The notes: generated by a model not told the origin, from the sequence alone. DNA of 13,059 bases from Candidatus Hodarchaeota archaeon (GCA_016839785.1 JAEOTQ010000008.1:1-13059); one strand, 5' to 3'. Counted from the first letter of the stretch, positions 1 to 13,059 are shown. A program made the numbers and translations.

Positions 1-340
1 CGATGAGTGGCAGTGTTTAAAACACACTGAGCATGTCAGAAAACCTCCACGCGTATTTATAAAACGAATACTGCTCTATCAACGGGATTTTTCTTCAAAA
101 ATACCCCAGCACTCGTTTACCATCTCATGGTTATCGTCGCCAATCCCCATGGCTTTTCGCTGATGGCAAAATGGATTCATCTTTTCGAGGTCCGTTTCGT
201 GCTTTCTTTTAAAGAAAGCATTCAGCACTTATCGGTTAGCGCGTGGCGGCCGGGCAGTACCCTTCCAGATAATCCGTAGACTAGAGGCACCCATATCCTG
301 TTCCTCTCGTCCTGAGGACACGTTCCTCTCACGAATCCAA
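1..340 (-). pseudogene. Degenerate 23S rRNA 3'-end (domain VI, H94-H101) fragment; longest copy (A) of the interspersed repeat, cut by the left window edge
   Basis: The + strand follows the reverse complement of the 23S 3' end in order: ctctatcaacggg (74-86), cttttcgagg..gtttcgtgct..gcattcagcacttatc (181-233), gcgcgtggcggccgggcag, actagaggcaccc, and tcctgttcctctcgtcctgagga (H95/SRL, archaeal GAGAGGAAC type). H94-like pairing tggattc(172-178)/gaatcca(333-339) is kept. The SRL is mutated (AGUACGAGAGG to AGGACGAGAGG) and similarity stops near 340, so this is not a functional rRNA gene. Confidence 0.8.
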
Positions 341-589
341 AAATATACTAATGCACCTTTAATAACTAAATCAGTAAATTAAACATCTAATTCAAATGAA
401 TTTCTTTGCAGAAATCATTAAATTATCCACTCATGGTTTAGAAAAATATATTTTCCTTTTACATTTAATAAAAGTGTTAATTGATATTATAGTAGTCTTA
501 AATGGTTGAAAATATACTCTAGTAGTATTAATAGACTTATGTACCGAAATACACTTTAAATAGTCTAATAAAAATGATATAACCAAGCT

Positions 590-625
590 ATACAAAGTAT
601 AAATAACACAAAGTATTTATAAGTT
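590..625 (+). promoter_or_regulatory. Putative archaeal promoter (TATA box TTTATAA at 616-622) of the TA-like operon
   Basis: TTTATAA lies about 30 bp upstream of ATG 652, the spacing expected for a leaderless archaeal transcript. It is preceded by the direct repeat acaaagtat (592-600, 608-616). Confidence 0.5.
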
Positions 626-651
626 TACATCATATGTAAAATTGAATGTGA

Positions 652-1689
652 ATGGCAAGTCAATCTACATATAATTCAAGTCAACTATTCAATGATGTAT
701 CACTAGAGATACTATTTGATTTATATCATGCAAAAAAAGCTTTAACAATATATGCGTTTGATAAGAAATACTCTTATCGCCAATATCAGTATATGTTAAA
801 AAAACTTGAATCTAATCTAATAATCAAACCTTATAAGGAAGGAAAGAAGAAGTTTTACAAGTTAAATCACTTTAATAATGAGCTGGTGAGATCAGTGCTA
901 GAAATAAAAAAGTGGGAGGAAACAAATGACCATAACGAATTTCCTCAATCCCTATCAGATGACAAAAGGTTTTTTCGAGTTCTATCCGCTCTGAAAGAAA
1001 CACATGGATGGGCTTTTACTGATACAACAGCATTACTAATATGGGCACCTTTTCTTGATCTTCAATTACCATATTTTACTGTATGTGTTAGAGATCGATA
1101 TCTAAAGAGCAAACTGGAAGAAAACTTCCCACGTTCAGTTCTTAGAGTCCAGTTACAGGCAAAGTTTTTTTCACAGGAATCAAACATCACAGACATAAAA
1201 GGTGTGCCAGTGCTGAAACCAGAAATATTAGTTCCTAGACTTTTATGTGATGAAAATACCCGAGTAAGACTTTCTTCTTTGTTCTTACTTCCATTTTTAT
1301 CACCAAGAAGAGTCCTTAAATATCAAGAAAAGAATACAAAAATATTTCCAAGTATACTGTACTTTTTATTCGCGCTAGAGAATGTACTGAATAGAGATTC
1401 GACGCTTTCTACATTCTCAAGGCAATGGTTTTATAATTTTGACCATTTTGATATGAATCTGTTGTTTTCACACTATCTACAACAGATGGGTAAAAAAAGG
1501 AAGAGCAAACTAAAGCCAACAACTTTTAAGCGGTATGAGCTTTTGAGAATAAAACAACAACTACAGTCAAATCAATGGACTGAATGGGATCGACTGGGGA
1601 TGCTTTTTCCAGACAAAACGGTAAATTTTGAACCAAGTGATCTATTGGAATTAATAATCTCCTCATCTCCCTTGCTAGCAGAGGCCTGA
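652..1689 (+). CDS. Winged-helix transcriptional regulator, AbiEi-like (type IV TA) antitoxin candidate
   Basis: 345-aa ORF. The N-terminal part is wHTH-like (YSYRQYQYMLKKLESNLIIKPYKEGKKKFYKLN). The central GWAFTDTTALLIWAP...FTVCV and IKGVPVLKPEILVPRLL segments resemble the AbiEi C-terminal domain. It lies 3 bp upstream of a nucleotidyltransferase gene. Confidence 0.6.
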   Translation: MASQSTYNSSQLFNDVSLEILFDLYHAKKALTIYAFDKKYSYRQYQYMLKKLESNLIIKPYKEGKKKFYKLNHFNNELVRSVLEIKKWEETNDHNEFPQSLSDDKRFFRVLSALKETHGWAFTDTTALLIWAPFLDLQLPYFTVCVRDRYLKSKLEENFPRSVLRVQLQAKFFSQESNITDIKGVPVLKPEILVPRLLCDENTRVRLSSLFLLPFLSPRRVLKYQEKNTKIFPSILYFLFALENVLNRDSTLSTFSRQWFYNFDHFDMNLLFSHYLQQMGKKRKSKLKPTTFKRYELLRIKQQLQSNQWTEWDRLGMLFPDKTVNFEPSDLLELIISSSPLLAEA

Positions 1690-1692
1690 AAT

Positions 1693-2346
1693 GTGAATCG
1701 TGAATTCCCACGTTACAGAGACTTTCTCACCATTCAAGAAAAACTGGAAGAAAGTTGCCCAGTTCAAGTATTTGCGATTGGTGGAACATTCCTTCAAGGA
1801 TATATCAATACAGTATTCACCAGAGACATTGATATAGTGGTTGCTATCACATCATCAGTATTAAACCCAATCGAAATACTAGATCCTGTTTTAAATGATT
1901 TAGACTTCAAACGTGTGTCAACGCTGATGGATAGTTACTTTCGGTTCGAAAAAAGTGATGGGTTAAAGCTGGACGTTTTTATCAATAAGGTCTTTATGTT
2001 CACAATAACCCCTTCTATATTATCTAGGGCTATAAATAAGAAATTATCACCTGAAGATGTTTTTCTTCTAAAAGCCCAATCAACTCGTGGATTGGATAAA
2101 GAATTTACAGATTTAAAACAGATAATCTCAAATATAACTAGAGGAAAGTTCGATTATCAAATCATTGTTGAAGAAATTACCTATCAGCTAAAAAACACTA
2201 TTACTCTCAATCCTCAAAACCTTATCAGATTATTAAAAATACTCGAAGCAATTGAACAATTGAATGAAATATTCCCAGATGAGGTACCATACGTTTTCCT
2301 CAATGAGATTGAGAGGATTTATTCTCTTCACGGAATTTTTGAATAG
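1693..2346 (+). CDS. DNA pol beta-superfamily nucleotidyltransferase, AbiEii-like toxin candidate
   Basis: 217-aa ORF with GTG start. It carries the motif VFAIGG...TRDIDIVV and a later KLDVF acidic residue, plus PEDVFLLK and TDL segments typical of AbiEii-type NTases. It is tightly coupled to the upstream wHTH gene. Confidence 0.7.
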   Translation: MNREFPRYRDFLTIQEKLEESCPVQVFAIGGTFLQGYINTVFTRDIDIVVAITSSVLNPIEILDPVLNDLDFKRVSTLMDSYFRFEKSDGLKLDVFINKVFMFTITPSILSRAINKKLSPEDVFLLKAQSTRGLDKEFTDLKQIISNITRGKFDYQIIVEEITYQLKNTITLNPQNLIRLLKILEAIEQLNEIFPDEVPYVFLNEIERIYSLHGIFE

Positions 2347-2400
2347 AGACTTTAGTAAGATGAGAAACTCACACGAAAAACGAGGGTACTAATAAAAAAA

Positions 2401-2498
2401 ACCATAAGAAAGAAGACCAGACCTCTCATCAAACACATTTTACGACTCCTGAAGGCTATTTCTTTGAGAAAACGAGAGGACTGAAAATTTCCATATGG
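2401..2498 (-). repeat. Interspersed repeat copy B (3' module only, most truncated)
   Basis: gactcctgaaggctatt-tctttgaga-aaacgagaggactgaaaatttcca matches copies C, D, F and G. It ends about 10 bp from the stop codon of ORF 2509-4275. Confidence 0.9.
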
Positions 2499-2508
2499 TC
2501 TAGAGATT

Positions 2509-4275
2509 TTAGACATTCAATACGATAAGGGCTTTTGGTCGACCTCGTTTACTCCGTTTCGGACGCTGGTAAAGGACAGAAAGGTACGGGGAAGTAATTT
2601 TTTGAATCGAGGTGATAACTGAGGAAAGACGGGGACGGAGAAGACGATTACGTAAATAGAACTTCGCTTTCTGATTACCTAAATAACGTTCTTTCTGGAC
2701 CCAGAGATCTAGCACTTCTTCTCGGGTGAAAGTAACTTTTTTCGATTGAGCATAAGCGGTCTGCAAAAGGTCTTTTATGATAATGAGATCACTAGGGGCA
2801 ATATGTGGTACCTTTGGTGGATCAGTTTCAGGGGATGTTATCTCTATTCTTTCTAAATTCAATTTAACAAGTTTTTTGTACAGATTAAGCAGTCCGTTCT
2901 TATCAGATGGATGAGATTCAAAATACAAACAATCTAAATCATCTGCCAACTGCTGACCCTGCTCAGTAGTCACTTCTTCCGAATCAGTAATAACGCCAAG
3001 TATTGCAATAGGTTTCTCTACACCTTGGACTTCCCGATAATCTTGATACCAATATTGAACAGTATCAAACGAGGCCCGATCACCTTTATCAAAGATAATA
3101 ATACACCCACTTGAGCCTTCATAATAAAAACGGCGTAACTTCCCAAAATACTCCTGGCCTGCCGTGGTATGCAAGATGAGCTTCACTTCTTGATCGTTAA
3201 CCGTAATCACCTTAGATGCAATGTCAACGCCAATTGTTGGCATATAGTTCATCGAAAAAGCCCCTTCAGCCGTGTTACGAACAAGTTGACAAATCATGTT
3301 TGTAATTCTCCCAGAAATACAAACCTTGAGCACATAGCGGTCTTTCAAACGGGCCCTGGATAAAGAAGGCACCTGAGATTGTGGAACGTCTGATCTATGA
3401 AGATGCCTGTGAATCTCTTTCTTCTTCCTCTTCTGAGTGTTTAATTCAAATTGTACGGGAGAATGTTGAACCCGATTATCTGATAATCCAAGAATTTCCA
3501 GATTAGAAAGGTTTTGGAGACTTGTGGGAGGAGAAGTTAGCGTTATATTGCCCTTCAAGAATAACCTACGGAGGTGAACTAATGAACCAAGGGAAGCTGG
3601 AAGGGAAGTAAGAGAATTATATTCCAAGGATAATTCTCTTAAATTCTTAAGGTTACCAAGGGAGTCTGGAAGTGTAACAAGCTTATTGTGACGACACCAT
3701 AACTCCTGAAGATTTTTTAACCTGCCTAGTTTTTCAGGAAGTAAGCGTAAATGGTTGTAATCTAGATCTAAGACCTTAAGGTTCAAAAGGTCCCCGAAAG
3801 AATCAGGTAAGGAAGTAAGCTGACAACGCTGTAGTTTTAAGACTTCTAAATACTTAAAGACACTAATAATCGGGGGTAAAGAACCAATATTATGCCCAAT
3901 TAATGTTAATCGCAATAAATGTTGATCTTTAATTTCTAGATTTCTAATCTTGGAATTAAGTGGAAATTCTAATTGAGAACCCAGTTCTAGTAACGCTGTG
4001 GCTTCACTAGGAATGAGAAACGAACGAAGCCAATAATTTTGGAGATACTTTGGGTGAATTTCCAACCGTTTGCATTCTTTTCCTAGAAGAAAATCGAACT
4101 GTTTTATGAATTGATAGTGGCCGGTTGAAAGTAACTCTCCGATCAATTTCTCAGAAATTGCTTCTTTAAGCTGAAAATAATTTGAAAATTCCTTAATACT
4201 TAGTGATAAGTGGCCTCCTGAATTGTTAAACTCTTGGTGTATATGTTTTAAGAGATCTGCGTGTGAAATCTCCAA
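2509..4275 (-). CDS. LRR + degenerate Rab-like GTPase fusion with putative terminal winged-helix domains
   Basis: 588 aa, TTG start with SD-like GAGGG. About 7 LRRs of 23 aa (LxxLxLxxNxLxxLPxSLG). A Rab-like domain (~3336-2860) has YMPTIGVDI and TTAGQEYFGKLRRFYYEG but no GxxxxGK[ST] or NKxD. The C-terminus is basic and ends KRGRPK. Confidence 0.85.
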   Translation of the reverse strand: MEISHADLLKHIHQEFNNSGGHLSLSIKEFSNYFQLKEAISEKLIGELLSTGHYQFIKQFDFLLGKECKRLEIHPKYLQNYWLRSFLIPSEATALLELGSQLEFPLNSKIRNLEIKDQHLLRLTLIGHNIGSLPPIISVFKYLEVLKLQRCQLTSLPDSFGDLLNLKVLDLDYNHLRLLPEKLGRLKNLQELWCRHNKLVTLPDSLGNLKNLRELSLEYNSLTSLPASLGSLVHLRRLFLKGNITLTSPPTSLQNLSNLEILGLSDNRVQHSPVQFELNTQKRKKKEIHRHLHRSDVPQSQVPSLSRARLKDRYVLKVCISGRITNMICQLVRNTAEGAFSMNYMPTIGVDIASKVITVNDQEVKLILHTTAGQEYFGKLRRFYYEGSSGCIIIFDKGDRASFDTVQYWYQDYREVQGVEKPIAILGVITDSEEVTTEQGQQLADDLDCLYFESHPSDKNGLLNLYKKLVKLNLERIEITSPETDPPKVPHIAPSDLIIIKDLLQTAYAQSKKVTFTREEVLDLWVQKERYLGNQKAKFYLRNRLLRPRLSSVITSIQKITSPYLSVLYQRPKRSKRGRPKALIVLNV

Positions 4276-4470
4276 GTTTTACCCTCTTTCAACCCTGATG
4301 GGAAAGGAATCTGTCTTATTACTATGAAATATCACAACGTTCCGACAAAATTTTTCTTGTGGTCAATGATTTACTAGAGTGACACTTCTTAGTTAAGGAG
4401 TTAACTAGAGAAAGTCTTCGCAAGTTAATGGATAAAAAGTGGGATTCAAAACGAACCAGAACTAAAAGAA

Positions 4471-4721
4471 GTGACCATCAGACATAAGATCAGAAGACTT
4501 ACCACATATACTCTATTTGACTCCTGAAGGCTATCTTACGAGAGGACTGACAATTTTCACCTTGTTTAGAAACAATAGCCCGTGAGCGAGGAGTGGTAGT
4601 GTTTAAAACACACCGAGTATGTCGGAAAACCACCACGTGTATTTCTAGTAAGAAAACTGCTCTATCAACGGGATATTTTTTAAGAAAGATCCCAGCACTC
4701 GGTTACCATCACATGGTTACC
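4471..4721 (-). repeat. Interspersed repeat copy C (3' module plus ~145 nt of 23S-like sequence)
   Basis: 4587-4719 aligns closely with 1-133 (gtgtttaaaacacac, atgtc.gaaaacc, actgctctatcaacgggat, cccagcactcg.ttaccatc.catggtta). 4471-4586 aligns with copies B, D, F and G. Confidence 0.95.
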
Positions 4722-4743
4722 AGATAACTAAACCACCTCTCAT

Positions 4744-5769
4744 CTAAATTTGTTTAATTCTAAGATGTAAGATTAGATTCTCCAGTAAGGAAGAAACCGA
4801 TAAATTAGGGATCTTACTTAAGTAAAAGCGAAGATATTCACCTTCCTGCGTTTCATAGATAAGAGGGGCAAGTCTAAACGGTTCTAGAGAACGATGAAAG
4901 ACTTCCTTGGACTGTGTTTGAACAAGCCAGTCATCGCAAGAGTCTTCATAACATTGATACCCCAGATCGAAAGTTACATGAGAAAAACCATACTCCTTCA
5001 TCCGTCGGACAAGACTCAACCCAGCTAATAATTCATGAAGCTGAAGGTCAGGGGGGATGGTTTTTAGGGTGGTCTGTAGTTCTTGGAGGGAGAGACCACT
5101 ATAAATTCTAGCACAGGGATTTAATAATGAATTTTCCGTTAGATCGAGGGTTTTTAGAGTTGGAAGGTCACCTACAACCCTCGGGATAAGCGAGAAATTA
5201 TTGTTCGCTAAAACAATACATTCGATATTGGGAAGCTGACTAAGAGTGAGGGGGAGGGTAGAAAGGCGGTTTTTCCATAATTCTAGCTCTCTTAAATTAG
5301 AGAGCTGCCCAAGCGAGTCAGGTAAGTAGTCTAACTGGTTATCGTTAAGAGCAAGGCTCGTAAGCGTCCTAAGGTGGGTAAGGGAATCAGGAAGAGAAGG
5401 GAAATTATTCGAGGATAATTTAAGCACTTCGAGTTGGGTTAGCTGACTAAAGGAATCAGGAAGGGTAGAAAGCTGATTATTATCCAATAAAAGAACCTTG
5501 AGTTTTCCAAGACATCCAATACTTGGAGGTAGTGTGGAGAGAAAATTCGAACTCAGATCTAACCATTCCAGCTCCGAAAATACCTCAAAGAAATTGGGAT
5601 GTAGTTCTAAACGGTTTTTAGATAAATTAAGTCGCTTTAAGTTAATGAAAGTTGTTATAATTTCAGGGATTGAGGTTAATTTTTCTCCCTCAAAGGAGAG
5701 CTGAACCACGCGTCCTTCCTGATCGACTCCTATTCTTCCCACCTTGAGCTGTTCTTCGTGAATCTCCAA
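4744..5769 (-). CDS. Leucine-rich repeat protein
   Basis: 341 aa, TTG start with GGAG about 10 nt upstream. About 8 canonical 23-aa LRRs (e.g. LKVLLLDNNQLSTLPDSFSQLTQ) followed by a C-terminal domain of unknown function. Confidence 0.9.
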   Translation of the reverse strand: MEIHEEQLKVGRIGVDQEGRVVQLSFEGEKLTSIPEIITTFINLKRLNLSKNRLELHPNFFEVFSELEWLDLSSNFLSTLPPSIGCLGKLKVLLLDNNQLSTLPDSFSQLTQLEVLKLSSNNFPSLPDSLTHLRTLTSLALNDNQLDYLPDSLGQLSNLRELELWKNRLSTLPLTLSQLPNIECIVLANNNFSLIPRVVGDLPTLKTLDLTENSLLNPCARIYSGLSLQELQTTLKTIPPDLQLHELLAGLSLVRRMKEYGFSHVTFDLGYQCYEDSCDDWLVQTQSKEVFHRSLEPFRLAPLIYETQEGEYLRFYLSKIPNLSVSSLLENLILHLRIKQI

Positions 5770-5795
5770 TTGTGGTATACTCCATTTATAACTTG

Positions 5796-6875
5796 CTATT
5801 CCGCATAGCCATCCTCAATAACCTTTCTAGACAGATATGTAAAAATTTCAAACGCTTGGTGCAGATCAGTGGGTTTGGACTCGAAATACTTCATGTTAAG
5901 TTGAGTGGCAAGCGCTTGGCATTCCTCAAAAGAGAGTGTTTCAGAATTCTCTTCACAGTGAGTAATTAGGCCAACTAATGCAATGGGGACATCAGGTTGG
6001 ATATACGTCTGAAATTCTTTTAGCCAGTACGGAACAGCATTGAAGGTTTGACGAGAACACTTGTCAAACAAGATTGAGGCAGCACTAGCCCCCCGATAAT
6101 AAGAGGGACGGAGTTTCCCAAAAAATTCTTGTCCTGCTGTATCAACTACGATTAATTTAACTGGAATCTCTCCTACGTTAATTTTCCTAGATCGAATATC
6201 GACTCCTAGGGTAGGCATATTATCCTGTGGGTTCTTGTATCCTACAAAAGAGTGAATAAATTTGGATTTAAGTTGAGAAACACTTCCGATGACACATATC
6301 TTAAGTAAATACGCTTGGTCGTCAAAGGAGTCCTTTCGAAGCTTCTGGATAAAGATATCACTTAATTTATCTAAGAGTGATGAATTGACAATAGAAGTTT
6401 CAAAAAGCTCTAATTTAAGATTCGCTGCAGTTTCCCGAACCATCTGTGGACTCATATAGCCAGCTTCATTCTTAATACCAAGCAGGATCACAGGAAGCGA
6501 TTTTGAAGTAAAAACCCTGAGCTCTTTCAGCCAATCCTTTAGATCCTTCACTGACTCAAGATATTCGTAATCCCATACTGAAATTGCTCCCGCAGCCTCA
6601 TGATAGAATGCCCCTTTTTTTTCACTTCCCTCTTCCGAAATATCAATAGCTAAATCAGAATACGTGAAATTAAAAGTAAAATGAAATCTTCTATACGCTA
6701 CCTCGTGAATCTCAGATATAGCTTCTTGACTCTGAAATTCTGTACTGTCATTGAGAGGACTTTCTAGTTCTGGTTGAAGAAGCTTTGCCACTAGTTCACT
6801 TGGAGTGCCAATAATGACAATCTTGTAAATATCAGCGTCGTTCCCTTGGTCAGGCATGATCAGTTCTTCTTCCAC
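5796..6875 (-). CDS. Tandem two-domain Rab/Ras-like small GTPase, P-loops degenerate
   Basis: 359 aa. Domain 1: YKIVIIG...FYHEAAGAISVWD...PVILLGIK...LFETS. Domain 2: LKICVIG...NMPTLGVDI...VDTAGQEFFGKLRPSYYRGASAASILFD...YFES. Neither has an intact GxxxxGK[ST]. Confidence 0.85.
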   Translation of the reverse strand: MEEELIMPDQGNDADIYKIVIIGTPSELVAKLLQPELESPLNDSTEFQSQEAISEIHEVAYRRFHFTFNFTYSDLAIDISEEGSEKKGAFYHEAAGAISVWDYEYLESVKDLKDWLKELRVFTSKSLPVILLGIKNEAGYMSPQMVRETAANLKLELFETSIVNSSLLDKLSDIFIQKLRKDSFDDQAYLLKICVIGSVSQLKSKFIHSFVGYKNPQDNMPTLGVDIRSRKINVGEIPVKLIVVDTAGQEFFGKLRPSYYRGASAASILFDKCSRQTFNAVPYWLKEFQTYIQPDVPIALVGLITHCEENSETLSFEECQALATQLNMKYFESKPTDLHQAFEIFTYLSRKVIEDGYAE

Positions 6876-7064
6876 TCTTGGTTATTAATTCCAGGACATA
6901 TCTGTAAGAAGATTTTTCGTTCAGTAAATCTCCCGACAAAAATCAACCAAAGATCAATAATAGGAATATCTTGGATTGTTCACAATTAAGGAGTTATCTA
7001 GAGAATCTATTCGAGAAAGAATTCACAAAAAGATAAAATTACAGAGAAATTAAGGGAAAAATAA

Positions 7065-7198
7065 GTGACCACCAGACATAAGACCAGAAAACTCACGAAC
7101 ACACACTATTAGACTCCTTAAGGCTATTATTTCTAAATAAACGAGAGGCCTGAAAATTTCCACACGGAAATTCAAAAATAGCCCGTGTGCGATGAGTG
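7065..7198 (-). repeat. Interspersed repeat copy D
   Basis: gtgacca.cagacataagaccagaa..ctca..cacactatt.gactcct.aaggctatt-atttctaaat-aaacgagaggcctgaaaatttccac..aatagcccgtgtgcgatgagtg matches the other copies. Confidence 0.95.
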
Positions 7199-7395
7199 AC
7201 TGGCTGCTCCGCTTTTATTCAAGACCTCTCTACTTAATGTTTATTTTGGTGAAAGGGAAAAAATAAGAATTTAAGATTGAGAGTCTCGTGTAGATGTGGT
7301 GGATATATTTAACCAGCTGAATTTCTTTCAAAATGGGTTTATGACCCATTCACTTCTTTTTCCATCCTTATCTTGATAGATAGCTTCTTGAATAA

Positions 7396-7671
7396 CTAGT
7401 TCTTCATAGATTCGAATTCTGTCTTACGATATGTCATCACCCAAAAATACATCGCAAGGATGACGAGCATAACAACACAAAAAATTATAAATCCTAGTAG
7501 AAGACCCTGTGTCTGATTTATGTCGTTAATAATTATTCCAAAACCCAGAGTTACCAGTAGTACCGCAATCACACCAACTATCTTTAGAATTGGTGGGAGA
7601 GGCGCAAGAATTCCTACCAAGCTTAATATGATTTTGACAAACCAGTTTTCCTTTGAAGGTGTCTCATTCAT
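7396..7671 (-). CDS. Small membrane protein with 2-3 TM helices, function unknown
   Basis: 91 aa. ATG is preceded by a strong SD (GAGGTGA). Hydrophobic segments IVGVIAVLLVTLGFGIII and GLLLGFIIFCVVMLVILAMYFWV. It is the only credible ORF between repeats D and E. Confidence 0.7.
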   Translation of the reverse strand: MNETPSKENWFVKIILSLVGILAPLPPILKIVGVIAVLLVTLGFGIIINDINQTQGLLLGFIIFCVVMLVILAMYFWVMTYRKTEFESMKN

Positions 7672-7859
7672 ATTATCACCTCATTTTCGAGTTGAAACAT
7701 TACTGTAGTTTTAACAGATTGTATTTTGTATTTGCTTAGTTTTTTGCAACAATTTCTCACAAAATTAAAGCAAATTTTTTAGGAGAGGTTGTTATTTTTA
7801 AGATTTACTAAGTAAGATTTTTCATTTCAAATAATCGGACACAATTGCAGAGTACTAAA

Positions 7860-8055
7860 GACCATTATACTCAAGTTACTCACTCTTTTACGCTTCCTGG
7901 AAGCTATTTCTCCTATAACACGAGAAGATTGACCCTTTCCACTTTTCTAAATAGAAGTAGCCCGTGTGCGATTAGTGATAGTGTCTAATGCACACTGAGC
8001 ATGTCGGAAAACCACTACGCGTATTTTCTTATAGAAGACTGTTCTATCAACGGGA
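7860..8055 (-). repeat. Interspersed repeat copy E (more diverged 3' module plus ~95 nt of 23S-like sequence)
   Basis: aagctattt..acgagaagattgaccctttccac..tagcccgtgtgcgattagtg..cacactgagcatgtcggaaaaccactacgcgtattt..actgttctatcaacggga aligns with copies A and C. Confidence 0.92.
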
Positions 8056-8558
8056 GGTTTTAAAGACAGAGGAGCTTAAACTAATGGTTACAAATGCGGC
8101 AAATGCATTAAGAAAGAGAAGAAATATAGTAATTGTCGGAGTGTAAAGACGGAGAAGTTCTGGCCGACCAAGGACAGAGCGACCCAGAACCTCACTAAAA
8201 ATTGTAAAATCAAAAAACTTAAGACGGACGTACCATAAAGGAAGGAGGGGATCAATATCACTGGTGACATGAAAGGGAAAAGACAAGAAATGGGTGAGAT
8301 CAAGGTTTAAGACTGACAATAGAGAGAGAACAAGGATTATCGAAAAGATCAGCAAGTGAAGGAGAAAACGAAAGCGAGAAAACACTGATGTAAACTTCGT
8401 TGTCCCAAGATTCCAGATAAGAAACCCAAAAGCCATACTTAGCAACATAGAAATTTATCTCCCTGAAACAGAATTTGGTGAATGCAATAATAACCCTCAT
8501 AAGCCCTGAACGCTCTTTAAACACATCTGTAAGACTCTTTGAAGAAGTTTTTCCATTT

Positions 8559-11264
8559 TTACATTCTAGATTTAGACCGTTTAAGCACCATTAAATTAAA
8601 CAAGACGATAAAAACAATTAGGAAAGATAATCCATTAGCTGATGAGGGAGAAGCAATACTGATGGGGCCCACATAAACGGAAGTACTAAGCTCAGTATCA
8701 CTAGCAACAACCAATAAATAATAGGTTCCGGGAGTTAGAGTAGAGAGAGCCCAAATATATGAAGATTCTTGATAATTAGATACTATTTGTATCCACGAAC
8801 TATTATCATTGCTATAGTAAATACTGAAATAGAGGGAATCACGAAGATTTGGATCTGATGCTTCCCAAGAAATTATAATCTCCTTGGAATATTCGTTATT
8901 AACTTTTGGTGTCAGAATAGTAAGTTCAGGAGCATAATTATTAGCGATCTGAATCTGTATAACTTCTGTTACTGTAGAAGTGTCATCTGAAACCATAAAT
9001 CTTAGATAGTATATTCCATTATTTAATTCGGAGATACGCCATAAATATTGTGTTCCAGAATTAGAAACAACCAAGGGGTACCATACGACTTGATCTGAAC
9101 TATAATGAATGTCAACGAGAATTAGATCATTCTCTACATCATTAGTTGACCATTGAATTTGAATCTCGTCAGAAAAGCTCGAATAACTAAAGGGACTGGA
9201 TATTGTAAGAGTGGGGGGGATGTTTTGATTATGGATATCAATTAAAAATATTGAGGATGTGAAATCTCCACACCAAATTTCAAGAGAATAAGCACCGTCA
9301 GAGAAAAGTGTTGTATCTAGATCATAGTCAAACTCAGAGAGGTTTTCTGCAATTGATATCGAATGAGAACCATTCATCAAATAGAGATTGAAAAAACAAT
9401 CTGAAATTTCTCCACCTGTAAGGTTCCATCTAATATTGACTGTATCTATCCAAAAGGAATTAGTTAATGTCAATAAGTCGATAACAGGCATCATAAGCGA
9501 AATCGGATAGGTTTTTTGCCCAAGAGATTCCCAGACTACAACATCTGAAATATCTTTTATGGCAAGGAGGGAGTTAACGGAGGTTTTATCATAGAAATCT
9601 TTGGGAACTGTAAAATTTGAATAGAAAAATCCAGGCCTAGTTAGGGATTCAATAGTATCACCTGTTTCTTCAGCCCAAAAAAAAGGAAACGAAGTAGTGT
9701 TATACCATTCAATTATTGGATAATAGGTTGCATCTGGGAATACAAAAAGACATGAAGCAAGTAAATCGGTAGAATTCGAATCCCTCCAAATAACAAAACA
9801 TCCAAGTGAGTTATCAGTGAAGAGTGATGAGTCGTTGGTTAATTCAAGGTCATAAGACATTGAATAGATAGTGCAATTTGTAAAAAAAACATTAGAATGA
9901 TCTAACAACAAATCAAAATCAATGACACTATTAATAAACGAGGCATTGGAATTAGTAATAACAGTTTCATCAATACCTACATCGACGAGTGTTATATTGG
10001 AGGAAGAAGAATCAGTTATAAAAAATGAATTAATATCAACTGTATCTAAATATAGAGAGAAATTACTGCAATTAAAATTCACAATATTAGGAGTACTAGT
10101 AGAAGTACTTAAAATAGTTACATTAGACCCGTGGAGAGTCAGTTGTGGGATGGTTGAAGTATGCTGTAGCTCAAGAATAACATCAGCATTATTTATATCA
10201 GAATCTCCACCGATGTCAAAATTAGATATTTCTACAGTTGAATTCTCAATCAAGACACTTAAAACATAAGTATTATGGTCTGAATAACCCGAAAAAATCG
10301 AATCCTGGATAACAATGAAACCGCGAAGTTCAATTGTATCAATTACAACAATGGATCTCATACAGGAAAAATTGTCGATATTAGGGGAAGTAGTGGTTGT
10401 GCTTGAGAGAGTCACATTCGAATCATCAAGTGTTATTTGAGGAATATAGGAAGAGGGTTGTAACTCTAACACCACATTAGAATCAGAAATTTCTGTTATT
10501 CCATCGATTTCAAGATCAAAAACGGCTACAGTTGAATTCTCAATTAAAACACTAGCAACATTAGAGAAATAGTCAGCTAAACCAAAGAAAATTGAATCTT
10601 GAATAACTAAAGACCCCAAGAGCTGAATAGTATCAATCGAAATATTTGATTTGTAACATGACAAATCATTGATATTAGGAGAACTAGTAGTAGAACTAAA
10701 AAAAGTCGCATTGGAATTAATAATCGTCATTTGGGGGGTATTAGAGAAGTACAACAGCTCGAGAAGCACGTCGGAATCGACTATTTGACTTACTCCATTA
10801 ATCACTATAACACTAAAATTTACTGAAGAATTGCTTATATAAAGAAAGTTAATATCAGGAGCACTGGATGTACTCGAACTAGCGACATCTATTTCGGAAT
10901 TAATTGTAGTAAAATTGGAAATTATTGAAAAATAATCCAAATTTCCCTGAAGTAATGAATTTCCATAGACTGAACAGGTCCCTGTTAAATCTAATTTTAT
11001 AAACCGAAACTCAGAATTTGACTCGACAAGCACACTAGTTTCTACTGTGACACTAGAAGCATCTACGGTCAAAGTACCTCCATTTCTAACTATTATGCTG
11101 TTGTAAGTCTCAACAGTCGAAATTGTTATTGATTCATTATCAACTATTAGATCAGGACTAGCTACAACTATAATACTCAGGTTAGAAGTAATTATCGGGA
11201 ATATTACTATGACAAGGAGAACCTTAATTCCCATAATTTTAGCCAAAATTCCATCCTCAAACAA
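8559..11264 (-). CDS. Large cell-surface protein: signal peptide, beta-solenoid-like repeats, Ig-like domains, C-terminal TM anchor
   Basis: 901 aa; the real start may be the ATG at 11234. It has an N-terminal hydrophobic segment, a Ser/Thr/Asn/Ile-rich repeat region with many N-x-S/T sequons, about 3 Ig/FN3-like units (PTLTISSP...IQIQWSTND; PELTILTP...IIISWEASD) and a C-terminal GLSFLIVFIVLFNLMVL-KRSKSR anchor. Confidence 0.85.
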   Translation of the reverse strand: MFEDGILAKIMGIKVLLVIVIFPIITSNLSIIVVASPDLIVDNESITISTVETYNSIIVRNGGTLTVDASSVTVETSVLVESNSEFRFIKLDLTGTCSVYGNSLLQGNLDYFSIISNFTTINSEIDVASSSTSSAPDINFLYISNSSVNFSVIVINGVSQIVDSDVLLELLYFSNTPQMTIINSNATFFSSTTSSPNINDLSCYKSNISIDTIQLLGSLVIQDSIFFGLADYFSNVASVLIENSTVAVFDLEIDGITEISDSNVVLELQPSSYIPQITLDDSNVTLSSTTTTSPNIDNFSCMRSIVVIDTIELRGFIVIQDSIFSGYSDHNTYVLSVLIENSTVEISNFDIGGDSDINNADVILELQHTSTIPQLTLHGSNVTILSTSTSTPNIVNFNCSNFSLYLDTVDINSFFITDSSSSNITLVDVGIDETVITNSNASFINSVIDFDLLLDHSNVFFTNCTIYSMSYDLELTNDSSLFTDNSLGCFVIWRDSNSTDLLASCLFVFPDATYYPIIEWYNTTSFPFFWAEETGDTIESLTRPGFFYSNFTVPKDFYDKTSVNSLLAIKDISDVVVWESLGQKTYPISLMMPVIDLLTLTNSFWIDTVNIRWNLTGGEISDCFFNLYLMNGSHSISIAENLSEFDYDLDTTLFSDGAYSLEIWCGDFTSSIFLIDIHNQNIPPTLTISSPFSYSSFSDEIQIQWSTNDVENDLILVDIHYSSDQVVWYPLVVSNSGTQYLWRISELNNGIYYLRFMVSDDTSTVTEVIQIQIANNYAPELTILTPKVNNEYSKEIIISWEASDPNLRDSLYFSIYYSNDNSSWIQIVSNYQESSYIWALSTLTPGTYYLLVVASDTELSTSVYVGPISIASPSSANGLSFLIVFIVLFNLMVLKRSKSRM
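10060..10810 (-). repeat. Intragenic 294-bp (98-aa) repeat, about 2.5 units
   Basis: ttagg (PN motif) at 10087, 10381 and 10675, and ctacagttgaattctcaat at 10232 and 10526, both recur with an exact 294-bp period. Confidence 0.85.
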
Positions 11265-11371
11265 AGGTTACATTGAATTGATAAGTCAAATTGTTAATAC
11301 TCTATAAAAAATATTGGAATTCTCCAATTAATACTGTTTTCAGATTTCCACTTTTTTCCCTCAAAGGTAAA

Positions 11372-11498
11372 ATGACTATCAGAAATAAAACCAGAAGACT
11401 CATCTACACACTATGTACGACTCTTTGAGGCTATTACTTAGAAGTAAACGAGAGGACTGACAATTTCCACACGGTTAGCCCTTGTGAGAGGAGTGGTA
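11372..11498 (-). repeat. Interspersed repeat copy F
   Basis: tgactatcagaaataaaaccagaagactca..cacactat..gactctttgaggctatt-acttagaagt-aaacgagaggactgacaatttccacacgg-ttagccc..gaggagtggta matches the other copies. Confidence 0.93.
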
Positions 11499-11574
11499 AT
11501 TGACTGAACCAGCCTGTTTTTAAGAGGAGAGAATTAACTAAATGATGGATTATCCAGAAGAAACACACACATAC

Positions 11575-12819
11575 TCACATTGCCAGCAATCTATCAATAT
11601 CTGATTGTGTTATCTCTTTGGGATCCAAATTTCTAACCAAATCTCGAATGATTCGAATTTGAGCTTCAGTCAGATTTGCAGGGAGTTTAATATCGTAATC
11701 TGCCCCTAAAAGTTCGGAAGTAGTGAAAGGTATTCGAATATTGAAATCTAGTTCTTCAAATTGCTCATATACCATCACAGTTTTGGTAATATAGGATTGA
11801 GCATTCACCATTTCTTTGAGAATTATTTCTTTTTTGGCTTGGGACTGAAGTAAATTTCGAATCTGCTTAACGAAAATCGTTAAGTTAGAATAGAAATTGT
11901 CCGGAAAATAATTATACTTAGGATGTTGCAGTATTACTTTTTTCTGTGGAGGAGAACGTATCGTAAATGCAAGTGTAAAATTATTTCTTTTATCAGGAGA
12001 ATCAGGATTTGCAGTTGCAAAACCAAAAGCAAGGATAGCACATCTCTCAAATTTTTCTCTTTGTACCCGTGCAAATATAATCCTTCCACAAGTTGGGCAT
12101 AAAGTTTGTTCATCAGTTACGAATTCAAATTCAAAGCGGCTAGGTATGATCTGATCAAGGTTTAATCCAGTTCCCACTAATCCAGTTCCAGAAAACACTC
12201 GCTCTGCAAGATTTTTAGAATTTTTTTGAGGAAAACGATTGTTAAAAGTATCCAACATTGGAATAGGGCCAGTACCATGAGAGAAAAACGACAAAAGCGA
12301 ACCATAAGAGAGTTCATCCATTCTTTTCTCAGCTTCAAGGTTAGGAATTCGGTGTATTTCGGCTTCCATCGCTTGAATCACCTTTTCTTGCAATTTGTAT
12401 TCAGTTATCGTTTTAATATCAGGATAGGTTTGTGCTGCATTGGGATATGCCAAATTAATATGTGAGAGAAGAATTTGTTCATTGAAATCGGGCTGATAGC
12501 GGGTTTGTAGCCCCCTCAGAAAATTTTTGAGGAAAATGAGCTGGATCAAACCACCTCTGTCAGAGGGATAAGAAATTGGAGAATGATTACTTGAGTGAAG
12601 CTCTTTCTGCTCAGTATGACGTCGCATGATAGTCTTGATAGAATTTTCCTTAACCCCAGTAATTTCCTGGATTTCTGAGTAAGTAAAGCCTAAACTTACA
12701 AAATAAACAATAATTAAATGTTTGATACGCATTTGAGCCATAGGTTGGGCAAGAAATTGTTTAATCAAATCATCATTCAAATCAAATAAAATCATCAAAA
12801 TCGAGAGTAAATATGACAT
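11575..12819 (-). CDS. Hypothetical protein with N-terminal HTH and a CxxC motif
   Basis: 414 aa. LGFTYSEIQEITGVKENSIKTIMRR resembles a sigma-70 region 4/LuxR-type HTH, and there is a CPTCG knuckle. No catalytic motif was recognised. Confidence 0.7.
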   Translation of the reverse strand: MSYLLSILMILFDLNDDLIKQFLAQPMAQMRIKHLIIVYFVSLGFTYSEIQEITGVKENSIKTIMRRHTEQKELHSSNHSPISYPSDRGGLIQLIFLKNFLRGLQTRYQPDFNEQILLSHINLAYPNAAQTYPDIKTITEYKLQEKVIQAMEAEIHRIPNLEAEKRMDELSYGSLLSFFSHGTGPIPMLDTFNNRFPQKNSKNLAERVFSGTGLVGTGLNLDQIIPSRFEFEFVTDEQTLCPTCGRIIFARVQREKFERCAILAFGFATANPDSPDKRNNFTLAFTIRSPPQKKVILQHPKYNYFPDNFYSNLTIFVKQIRNLLQSQAKKEIILKEMVNAQSYITKTVMVYEQFEELDFNIRIPFTTSELLGADYDIKLPANLTEAQIRIIRDLVRNLDPKEITQSDIDRLLAM

Positions 12820-12883
12820 GATATATTATCAAGGTTTCGAAATGAAACCATGTCAACTGTCTGTTGACTTCAAATTAAACTCT

Positions 12884-13007
12884 ATCAAAAACCCTCCACA
12901 CACTCCAGGTGGCTCCTTAAGGCTTTTTTTCTAATTATTTGAAATAAACGAGAGGCCTGACAATTTCCACACTAATTTCAGATTAATAGCCCGTGCGCGA
13001 GGAGCGG
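12884..13007 (-). repeat. Interspersed repeat copy G
   Basis: cacacact..ggctccttaaggcttt..ttatttgaaataaacgagaggcctgacaatttccacac-taatttcagatt-aatagcccgtgcgcgaggagcgg matches the other copies. Confidence 0.92.
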
Positions 13008-13059
13008 GAGCTTGCTGAAAAATATAATTTCATGGCATTTGATTATATTTCGAATGAAA

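Follow-up and report, generated by a model that had tools for sequence, protein, structure and literature searches.

What are the repeats that divide this stretch of archaeal DNA into short gene units, and do they belong to a system that collects genes? The window (the whole stretch analysed, 13,059 nt) is a complete contig of a Candidatus Hodarchaeota archaeon (genome G000). The original prediction described a cassette-like array of genes punctuated by seven co-oriented, rRNA-derived elements. The seven elements are real: a profile search placed all of them, with the rRNA sense on the - strand, and repeat families D1-D8 agree. The copies are:

1..342, - strand: copy A, long form, a 23S domain VI-like fragment, profile positions 7-338
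2391..2512 (profile match 2398-2506), - strand: copy B, short form, trailer part only, profile positions 354-463
4465..4721 (profile match 4468-4721), - strand: copy C, intermediate form, profile positions 214-466
7058..7207 (profile match 7064-7205), - strand: copy D, short form, profile positions 323-464
7841..8061 (profile match 7856-8061), - strand: copy E, intermediate form, profile positions 256-450
11367..11514 (profile match 11371-11514), - strand: copy F, short form, profile positions 312-464
12864..13019 (profile match 12893-13018), - strand: copy G, short form, profile positions 319-434, 41 nt from the contig end

The contig start cuts copy A at the 23S 3' end, so this copy has no trailer. 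The core ACGAGAGGNCTGANNNTTTNCA, allowing up to two mismatches, was found at the six sites reported for it (2472, 4538, 7141, 7920, 11448 and 12948), all on the + strand and spaced 2066, 2603, 779, 3528 and 1500 nt apart. Shuffled sequences gave an expected count of 0.00, and none of 200 shuffles reached six.

Judged by sequence comparison, the repeats are the 3' domain of 23S rRNA, truncated from the 5' side, followed by about 135 nt of genuine 3' trailer, that is, the 3' strand of the processing stem. The proposed 23S origin was borne out by the long copies, which match the true 23S 3' end of a congener at 75-76% identity over 284-308 nt (E 2.6e-50 and 2.3e-58; the former is copy A, at 75% over 284 nt), in an alignment that spans the sarcin-ricin-loop region to the 3' end. 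An Rfam search of the window found no rRNA at E<=1, and the full archaeal LSU model had no match in G000, which is 84.5% complete and whose own 23S is unassembled. Isolated copies in relatives cover only positions 2721-2973 of the 2987 in the LSU model. The ACGAG core, which reverse-complements a trailer motif, is not the sarcin-ricin loop. A sarcin-ricin-loop-like stretch occurs in copy A only, near position 330.

Real trailers from two relatives, G005 and G008, share the modules GTGTGGAAATT, GTCCT.TCGT, GCTTAAGGAGTC and TTC.G.TCT..TGTCTG with the trailer part of the copies. In G008, predicted pairing between the trailer and the 23S leader reaches -48.9 kcal/mol, compared to -28.7 +/- 4.2 in 300 shuffles. 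Mean column identity among the copies is 57%, and the best-conserved columns are the processing-stem modules. The copies also have a hairpin of 16-17 nt, with its length kept and compensating changes in its stem (at least five of six outer positions are paired in 72%, versus 4.8% in shuffles), and a weaker second hairpin. The 16-17-nt hairpin is missing from both real trailers. A consensus fold of 19 copies (RNAalifold) contained 0 pairs and no long hairpin like that of attC. The linker of copy D is an inverted copy of the adjacent GGAAATT motif; that of copy F is a gene-like 6-nt AACCGT.

The copies are 110-470 nt long and fall into two discrete classes with many intermediate lengths. Among 169 copies, 80 end at profile positions 460-479 (mostly 460-470 on a fine scale), whereas starts fall at positions 0-19 in 18 and at 320-339 in 47. 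Twelve copies with starts at 0-19 that were checked away from contig ends begin at positions 2-7, and six more long copies, from four genomes, all begin at position 2 with no continuation into 23S.

We found that the copies are clustered in arrays and not scattered, as the original prediction had supposed. The 29 copies in G000 are all on seven short contigs. In nine genomes of the genus, each of 40 array contigs has all its copies in one orientation, 169 copies in total (log10 P = -38.8 for random orientation), and in 458,374 bases of rRNA-sense strand the trailer motif occurred 96 times in sense and 0 times as its complement. Within the genus, 13 of 22 genomes have multi-copy 23S ends (up to 43 copies in one genome), as against 0 of 61 genomes from elsewhere in the class. 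All the genomes compared are metagenome assemblies. This co-oriented clustering does not fit a dispersed repeat of the MITE or SINE type.

A related idea is that the copies are SINE-like retro-copies of the pre-rRNA 3' end, primed where the transcript ends, shortened at the 5' side by incomplete reverse transcription and placed in a pre-existing island. The common 3' end with variable 5' truncation fits this, as do the two preferred starts, which coincide with landmarks in the RNA: one opens domain VI, the other the terminal helix strand. We nevertheless regard it as highly improbable. No dispersed or inverted copy was seen among the 29 in G000 or the 169 on 40 contigs, the copies go together with cargo units and lie precisely at the ends of genes, and the reverse transcriptase family RVT_1 is present in one of five array-rich genomes and had no match in the other four.

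A real rRNA gene at the head of an array, the anchor that had been anticipated, was found in one relative. Over its last 956 nt, contig G008:C8 leaves the array and continues upstream, past the copy limit, as real 23S sequence. G008, the one genome from which this junction is known, belongs to the other clade of the genus. Elsewhere, the copy at the head of a ~30-kb array in G011 stands isolated as a fragment; the contig runs on for 10 kb past it without any 23S. G010 and G016 have small clusters of copies at 3-5 separate places. The best explanation of the window is that it is part of a large array of accessory genes directly behind the rRNA operon.

The genes between the copies in the window are:

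652..1689, + strand: 345-aa ORF without a family match, opposite in sense to the repeats, with a 77%-identical homologue beside a long copy in G014
1693..2346, + strand: 217-aa ORF with a weak DUF2204 nucleotidyltransferase match (E 9.5e-5, 22.5 bits, cut-off 20.3)
2509..4275, - strand: 588-aa protein with LRR and Roc/Ras GTPase domains (Ras 9.6e-27, LRR_14 1.2e-16)
4744..5769, - strand: 341-aa LRR protein (LRR_8 3.5e-23)
5796..6875, - strand: 359-aa protein with two Ras-like domains (Ras 7e-37)
7396..7671, - strand: 91-aa hydrophobic ORF without a family match
8047..8448, - strand: 133-aa hydrophobic ORF, overlapping the 5' edge of copy E by 14 nt
8559..11264, - strand: 901-aa repetitive surface-type protein, with a 76%-identical homologue in a G004 array
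11575..12819, - strand: 414-aa ORF with a possible N-terminal helix-turn-helix, all families below cut-off

The first two ORFs had been called a toxin-antitoxin pair. We do not keep this name, the sole basis for which is the weak nucleotidyltransferase match; the partner protein has no match. The report that stops adjoin copies was accurate: ORF 2509-4275 stops 3 nt from copy B and ORF 4744-5769 about 7-23 nt from copy C. Genes lie on the - strand, with the repeats, in five of the six units, as described for the window, but this does not hold as a general rule, since the ORFs in all arrays divide into 124 with the repeat and 107 against it. These 231 ORFs are very diverse and form 158 clusters. 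Small (Ras-like) GTPases are enriched among them, which agrees with the suggested cargo of eukaryotic-signature type, and the arrays are also rich in genes of toxin-antitoxin type. Genes in the sense of the repeat stop a median of 31 nt from a copy, and gene starts are a median of 142-218 nt away from copies.

It is conceivable, but improbable, that the repeat is a selected functional module (an rRNA operon terminator, an insulator or an RNA-processing signal) that was copied into an ordinary variable island. The short distance from co-oriented stops to the copy ahead and the conservation of the processing-stem modules point that way. So does an oligo-T tract of T5 or longer, which follows 48 of 91 complete 3' ends compared to 15.6% of random 46-mers. 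Against it, 107 of 231 genes face the opposite way, the copies retain as much as 330 nt of useless 23S sequence and lose parts by deletion, the arrays have no partner leader strand, and both the anchoring at 23S and the polarity are left unexplained.

We compared arrays between relatives. As the original prediction had proposed, units have been gained, lost, duplicated and reordered, with breakpoints at the repeats: 35 of 56 ends of homology blocks lie within 60 nt of a copy, compared to 10.4% of bases. Homologous units keep the same orientation to the repeat in 52 of 53 pairs while their order varies between species, and duplicated units were found inside a single array. When G002/G014 junctions were read base by base, the switches fell between profile positions ~285 and ~430. 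G014 has lost 190 nt of a trailer that is still present in G002. A copy-free stretch distal to the G004 array holds cassette genes of other genomes. There was no clear age gradient along G004:C196. A search for circular junctions, in short assembled contigs only, found joints between copies with sides of 20-34 nt that are accounted for by other copies of the repeat. Neither an excised circle nor a sign of present-day activity was seen, nor any polymorphism inside a population.

Genes are tied more often to where the following copy starts than to the copy that precedes them. For example, the 133-aa ORF has a 77%-identical homologue in G002 that is followed by a copy starting at profile position 255 (256 in the window). 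This linkage to the following copy is a better fit to cassettes made of a gene and its following site than to insertions made of a new end and its cargo.

Could these junctions be an artefact of assembly or binning, with rRNA-like reads misjoined to unrelated genes? The genome is a metagenome bin, its contigs are short, and seven of 14 contig ends are within 400 nt of a copy. However, the same units with the same junctions are found again, at 80-97% identity, in other species that were assembled independently, arrays are present on contigs of 55-525 kb with ordinary genes, and array GC (36.8%) is close to that of the remainder of the genome (36.1%). Because the junctions are conserved across genomes, we consider an artefact refuted for practical purposes.

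The copies appear to be of local origin. The two long copies of G008 are 91-92% identical to that genome's own gene and 69-75% identical to copies from the other clade. In a tree, copies cluster by genome in G008, G001 and G000 (supports 100/98-99), and the real 23S gene is on a zero-length branch. Gene conversion could also give this genome-wise grouping.

The enzyme proposed for the array end (a recombinase, a reverse transcriptase or a Y1 transposase) did not turn up near any array. No integrase, homing nuclease, reverse transcriptase, resolvase or Y1 transposase was found within the arrays. We searched five genomes (G000, G002, G004, G008 and G014) for PF00589. The 17 matches, of which 16 reached the family cut-off, all lie on contigs without an array, and in every one of these genomes a single match of ~300 aa is strongly conserved. 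For homing nucleases the search covered LAGLIDADG_3; at least 39 matches were listed in five genomes, none of those listed on an array contig. Y1_Tnp is present in one of the five, and TnpB is common, with a single array copy, as cargo. A Pfam search of 149 of 185 array ORFs gave no recombinase among the 25 commonest families listed.

A dedicated system could still act from elsewhere. In such a system, circles would be excised and reinserted by a site-specific recombinase (a Xer-type tyrosine recombinase or an unrecognised protein) that is encoded outside the arrays and acts on the 23S 3' end, the short hairpin and a GTGGAAA...CCTCTCGT block. Strict polarity of the copies, changes of order with orientation kept, two discrete 5' limits, a conserved hairpin that real trailers lack, and a link between a gene and the 5' portion of the copy that follows, like that of an ORF with its attC, would all be expected. 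In addition, the switch points are within the most conserved 150 nt and the cargo (toxin-antitoxin genes, acetyltransferases and unknowns) resembles that of chromosomal integrons. We think this unlikely, given that PF00589 is missing from every array contig in the five genomes, the switch points are spread over ~150 nt instead of one position, the element has no consensus fold and little column identity, and the copies cluster with the resident 23S gene.

The reading that we prefer, to which we give a probability of about one half, is that serial insertions at the 23S 3' end duplicated the tail and that recombination between the copies later reshuffled the units. One- or two-gene segments would have entered there repeatedly, each time leaving or bringing a working gene end (domain VI or the last ~15-20 nt, plus a trailer of ~135 nt with the 3' strand of the processing stem and an oligo-T tract at its end) and pushing the earlier end downstream, where the displaced ends became the repeats. 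Displaced 23S ends would all point in the same direction and share a 3' limit, with 5' shortening to two preferred limits. They would then decay by truncation, deletion and small palindromic insertions. Because the copies are direct repeats that would recombine, units could be deleted, duplicated and moved without inversion. For entry itself, our guess is that general recombination is likelier than a dedicated integrase: the conserved rRNA gene may have anchored homologous recombination on one side, and the far side may have been joined illegitimately.

A bolder possibility, which we hold only tentatively, is an active, integron-like platform that captures and shuffles genes through recycled 23S tail and processing-stem junctions, by an unrecognised enzyme or by host recombination. 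If so, it would be a main engine that multiplies and diversifies small GTPases and other eukaryote-like signalling genes in this lineage, and its junction would be a copy of the 23S tail rather than a dedicated att sequence.

In this Asgard genus, the row of gene units is long and changes fast, and it appears to be a means, not described before, of gathering and shuffling accessory genes behind the rRNA operon. Integron cassette arrays have IntI, attI and attC, an imperfect inverted repeat that folds into one long hairpin; their cassettes are mostly promoterless, co-oriented and of a single ORF, and are excised and inserted as circles. The 23S arrays resemble them in being one-way, with small units of unrelated genes, a degenerate junction element between units, order that changes while orientation is kept, abundant toxin-antitoxin and unknown genes, and a fixed landmark at the head, here the 23S rRNA gene. 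Unlike integrons, they lack an adjacent or nearby integrase. Instead of an attC hairpin, a pseudo-copied gene end of 110-470 nt forms the junction. Genes point in either direction, and the 140-220 nt kept upstream of them leave room for promoters of their own. The integron-type organisation originally suggested thus does not apply, and the array is not an integron.

Tandem integrative elements and islands at the 3' ends of tRNA and tmRNA genes each encode an integrase. As in those islands, the target is a stable-RNA gene, insertions displace partial 3' copies that are direct repeats in gene orientation, and an intact gene stands at one end (for the 23S arrays, in one genome, G008). In contrast, the target here is 23S rRNA with its processing trailer, there are up to 43 copies per genome, the units are 1-3 kb and without an integrase, and the copies are old and diverged, in two length classes with intermediates. 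Eukaryotic rDNA elements of the R1/R2 type disrupt the gene and encode a reverse transcriptase and an endonuclease of their own. They too use the large-subunit rRNA gene as a safe, conserved target, but here the 23S gene stays whole and the inserts are ordinary cellular-type genes. The 23S arrays also differ from islands in which a homing endonuclease replaces a gene end, as none of the 39 LAGLIDADG_3 matches listed is on an array contig.

Passages of Wu et al. 2022 (PMC8813620) present HeimM2 of Ca. Heimdallarchaeum as one 8-kb mobile element that lies between the 16S gene and a tRNA gene and carries a leucine-rich-repeat protein and a homing-endonuclease homologue. The 23S system differs in being an array of rRNA-end copies, none of which those passages describe for HeimM2. 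The two are alike in being Asgard, in lying beside an rRNA gene and in having a leucine-rich-repeat protein aboard.

We found that the repeats in the window are displaced 3' ends of 23S rRNA. The window is the complete contig C5 of a 4.04-Mb, 248-contig assembly, and a profile search located seven co-oriented copies in it:

1-342, - strand: repeat copy
2398-2506, - strand: repeat copy
4468-4721, - strand: repeat copy
7064-7205, - strand: repeat copy
7856-8061, - strand: repeat copy
11371-11514, - strand: repeat copy
12893-13018, - strand: repeat copy

The six core motifs of the original prediction were at exactly the predicted places, all on the + strand (0 expected from 200 shuffles). Its gene map also held: of nine ORFs, seven are on the - strand, and two have stops that abut copies. 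The proposed derivation from rRNA was borne out by two long copies (C5:342-1 and C106:792-1260, read on the - strand). They align with the true 23S rRNA of a congener between the sarcin-ricin-loop region and its 3' end, with 75-76% identity over 284-308 nt (E = 2.6e-50 and 2.3e-58).

Behind the 23S part of the copies, the next ~135 nt contain the modules GTGTGGAAATT, GTCCT.TCGT, GC(C/T)TTAAGGAGTC and TTC.G.TCT..TGTCTG. All four modules were found again 3' of the real 23S genes in two relatives, G005 and G008; judged by its sequence, this trailer is no random spacer. In G008, pairing between the trailer and the 23S leader reaches -48.9 kcal/mol, versus -28.7 +/- 4.2 for 300 shuffles, and the trailer is thus the 3' half of the processing stem. 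The acgag core could be ruled out as the sarcin-ricin loop; it is the complement of one trailer module. Rfam gave no rRNA match in the window at E<=1, and its two hits, a snoRNA and a miRNA, were at chance level. The window copies are invisible to the Rfam LSU model because they are too short or too diverged. There was also no LSU match in the whole source assembly (84.5% complete), and in relatives there were isolated mid-contig matches at model positions 2721-2973 of 2987. The summed contig depth at window positions 248-273 was 150-545x in three sediment metagenomes, compared to ~4-6x in unique parts; here the universally conserved sarcin-ricin-loop stretch recruits 23S contigs of other organisms.

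The copies are clustered, and their polarity is absolute. The source genome has 29 copies by profile search, all on seven contigs of 2.8-18.4 kb and none elsewhere, with a single orientation within each contig, in line with the original prediction of an array of co-oriented copies. At seven of the 14 ends of these contigs a copy is found within 400 nt, so the contigs probably derive from larger arrays, one or a few in number. Using a sequence model of the core, we found copies in 17 of the 22 genomes of the genus, the richest three holding 43, 34 and 23. On 40 array contigs fetched from nine genomes, the 169 copies have one polarity per contig (log10 P = -38.8 under random orientation) and a median spacing of 1.8 kb. 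When at most eight candidates per genome were scored across the class, at least two matches to the 23S part were found in 13 of the 22 genomes of the genus, and at most one in each of 61 genomes from the other 17 genera.

Long contigs link arrays with ordinary chromosomal DNA in G004 (C196, 113 kb), G008 (C8, 55 kb), G011 (C12, 525 kb), G031 (C28, 147 kb) and G002 (C50, 67 kb). At its other end, the G008 array runs into the real 23S gene: the last 956 nt of the contig are trailer, domain VI, an insertion of ~320 nt, and then more upstream 23S sequence. A real rRNA locus, which the original prediction named among the features to look for at the array end, was thus found in this one genome; the 23S gene of the source genome is absent from its assembly. 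Every genome compared is a metagenome assembly. The "closed" genomes G010 and G016 have no LSU match, and the single contig of G010 has runs of 100-300 N in all three copy-bearing regions (C1, L058-L061), so neither is fit to serve as a gap-free reference.

The insertion in the real G008 23S gene (L022, G008:C8 ~54,300-54,630; 129-448 of the reverse-complemented contig end) lies between ...AACGUGA and GCUGGGUUUAGA, and is flanked by the inverted repeat AUGACUUAGC / GCUAAGUCAG; the long copies have their 5' limit ~36 nt downstream of it. It is probably an archaeal rRNA intron without an ORF. The operon at the head of the G008 array contains, inside its 16S region (L025, G008:C9 2500-2730, - strand), a 232-aa LAGLIDADG_3 frame, probably an intron-encoded homing endonuclease.

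The copies share a sharp 3' limit and have two preferred starts. Along the repeat profile, which runs from the domain VI side of 23S to the trailer 3' end, 80 of the 169 copies end at positions 460-479, on a fine scale mostly at 460-470. Starts are bimodal, with 18/169 at positions 0-19 and 47/169 at 320-339; the others are scattered from ~40 to 420, mainly 200-380. The 12 starts of the first class that were checked away from contig ends fall at positions 2-7, approximately the start of domain VI. Another six long copies, found in four genomes, begin without exception at position 2, with no 23S sequence beyond. Starts of the second class lie ~15-20 nt before the mature 23S 3' end, and these copies therefore comprise the complete 3' strand of the helix formed by terminal and processing stems. 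Of 91 complete 3' ends, 48 are followed by an oligo-T tract, compared to 15.6% of random 46-mers. Where a gene has the orientation of the repeat, its stop is a median of 31 nt ahead of the copy, and gene starts are 142-218 nt away from copies. Based on these distances, units resemble tightly packed whole genes, each with an upstream region of its own. We found no consensus fold among 19 copies and no leader-like partner strand within arrays.

Both long copies of G008 are close to the 23S gene of that genome (91-92% identity) and more distant from copies of the other clade (69-75%). A maximum-likelihood tree was built from 20 long copies and real genes. In it, the copies of G008, G001 and G000 (the source genome) group by genome (supports 100/98-99); the branch of the real G008 gene has zero length, and those of the copies are 0.009-0.11. 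We conclude that copies either derive from the resident gene or are homogenised with it, and that they afterwards evolve faster than it does.

Part of this change is palindromic. Both real trailers have 6-nt linkers, AACCGT and then CAGTTG/CAGTTA, and most copies have 16-17-nt palindromes at both places. RNA folding energies of these short hairpins scarcely differ from those of shuffles because the stems are A+T-rich, and we therefore counted complementary positions directly. At least five of the six outer positions were paired at the first linker in 72% of copies versus 4.8% in shuffles; at the second linker, 31% were paired versus 7%. Older-looking copies have similar palindromic extensions of ~10 nt in hairpin loops of the 23S part. 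Such A+T-rich inserts are placed exactly at hairpin loops and linkers, and lengthen existing stems, in window copies 1-342 and 4468-4721, in C106 and in the long copies of G002 and G004, and the insert at window 7173-7190 is an inverted copy of the adjoining GGAAATT. The inserts in decaying copies look like template-switch mutation or selection for hairpins. A long copy in G031 that has no palindromic changes has the shortest branch and lies directly behind the stop codon of an ORF.

The cargo is heterogeneous. Clustering of the 231 array ORFs with a length of 100 aa or more gave 158 clusters, 126 of them singletons, and small GTPases (33 members) are the only large family. Over the arrays, genes lie in either sense with respect to the repeat (124/231 same, 107/231 opposite). 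A Pfam tally of 149 of 185 ORFs from five genomes, with the 25 commonest families listed, gave Ras (15), Roc (13), Arf (6) and PIN (6), and further domains include beta-helix, LRR, nitroreductase, methyltransferase and Fic. Scans of single ORFs add ParE/RHH, GNAT, HSP20, AFOR with ferredoxin, WD40, Kelch, TPR and Hcp-like proteins. The array contigs of the source genome make up ~1.6% of it, yet hold 5 of its 54 Ras matches. GC content is 36.8% in these arrays and 36.1% in the rest of the genome. Of the 19 source-genome array ORFs with any hit, only 2 had a relative of >70% identity outside its array contigs, so recent copy-and-paste of cargo from this genome is not evident. These sole close outside relatives (C208:11390-12016 and C157:31-345; 84% and 74% identity) are on contigs that may be further array pieces without detectable copies. 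PADLOC had no hits among the nine window proteins, and kinship of the 345-aa window protein with AbiEi was unsupported (E = 0.16). One unit of G004 is filled by a single open frame of 3524 aa (L016/L017, C196 96,803-107,377, - strand). In G014, an archaeal ORF with homologues in G002 and G004 (L018, C70 8947-9561) matches Hcp, the tube protein family of bacterial type VI secretion (E = 8.3e-29). It is paired with an unknown ORF of 221 aa, and the two move together as a unit.

As had been predicted, units differ between species in gain, loss and order, and they differ at the repeats. Reading from the 23S-proximal end, G004 has a nitroreductase, a 136-aa PIN protein, a 137-aa PIN protein and a 996-aa protein; G031 has the 996-aa protein, the 136-aa PIN protein, the 137-aa PIN protein and the nitroreductase. 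In G014 the large protein precedes the homologue of the 137-aa PIN protein, and in G004 one Ras unit is present twice. Homology blocks (at least 600 bp and 80% identity, leaving out block ends at contig ends) had 35 of 56 ends within 60 nt of a copy in five genomes, compared to 10.4% of bases, although the ends are not independent events. Deletion also removes copies. Distal to the G004 array, a stretch without copies carries genes that occur in other genomes as repeat-flanked cassettes. In 52 of 53 homologous pairs from different arrays (at least 60% identity, the pairs not being independent), the two genes have the same orientation to the repeat. The copy behind a gene started at the same point among homologues in seven families and did not in three, by eye, and the start of the copy in front was less often shared. 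Base-by-base comparison of G002 and G014, which are 92-96% identical in shared blocks, placed the switches in identity within copies, at approximately profile positions 285, 420 and 430. Three runs of one study cover the window as short assembled contigs at ~4-6x depth; the ten joints between copies had sides of 20-34 nt, as other repeat copies would give.

A search of six enzyme families for a mobilising enzyme in the arrays had a negative outcome. Tyrosine recombinases (PF00589; 17 matches in five genomes) were absent from array contigs, and each genome has one well-conserved match of ~300 aa elsewhere, which we take for a Xer-type enzyme. None of the 39 LAGLIDADG_3 matches listed was on an array contig; most, in long frames, are presumably inteins. 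Resolvases were found in three of the five genomes and never on array contigs. Reverse transcriptase (RVT_1) and Y1_Tnp were each found in one of the five. TnpB is frequent, with one copy inside an array as cargo: a 426-aa frame between two repeat copies (L041, G031:C121 1029-1229, - strand), an IS200/IS605-type element.

These results bear on how the arrays are built. It is possible that an integron-like system with a dedicated enzyme moves the units, and this main rival would suit the two discrete 5' limits of the copies, the conserved hairpin and the link between an ORF and the site behind it. However, the switch points are spread over ~150 nt and no recombinase was found, and we therefore favor general recombination over a dedicated enzyme. 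Genes would have been inserted repeatedly at the 3' end of the 23S gene, each insertion bringing a functional substitute for, or a duplicate of, all sequence between the entry point and the trailer end. The trailer would be needed at each entry, since the operon still has to undergo processing and termination, and this need would give the copies their sharp common 3' limit. Later recombination between the direct repeats would move or delete units without inverting them.

A passage in Wu et al. 2022 (PMC8813620) describes a single element next to the 16S gene of a Heimdallarchaeum, with an LRR protein and a homing-endonuclease homologue. The literature we searched, mostly outside subscription journals and supplements, gave no description of cassette arrays at rRNA ends. 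Asgard archaea are studied for the gain and expansion of eukaryote-like genes, and this locus is a defined, lineage-specific hot spot of turnover: in one third of a megabase of array sampled across the genus, accessory genes are stacked, duplicated and reordered. Because contigs break at the repeats, array regions and the neighboring rRNA genes go missing from metagenome bins, and stray 23S 3' fragments in such genomes should not be tallied as rRNA gene copies.

To our knowledge, this would be the first gene array for which the end of an rRNA operon provides both the landing site and the junctions, and a new kind of landing site. The likeness to an integron array is one of outcome; three defining features of integrons, an integrase gene next to the array, a long attC hairpin and mostly promoterless co-oriented cassettes, were looked for and not found. 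Tandem islands at tRNA and tmRNA genes follow a similar logic to the arrays described here, in which the units have no integrases and the target is the rRNA operon.
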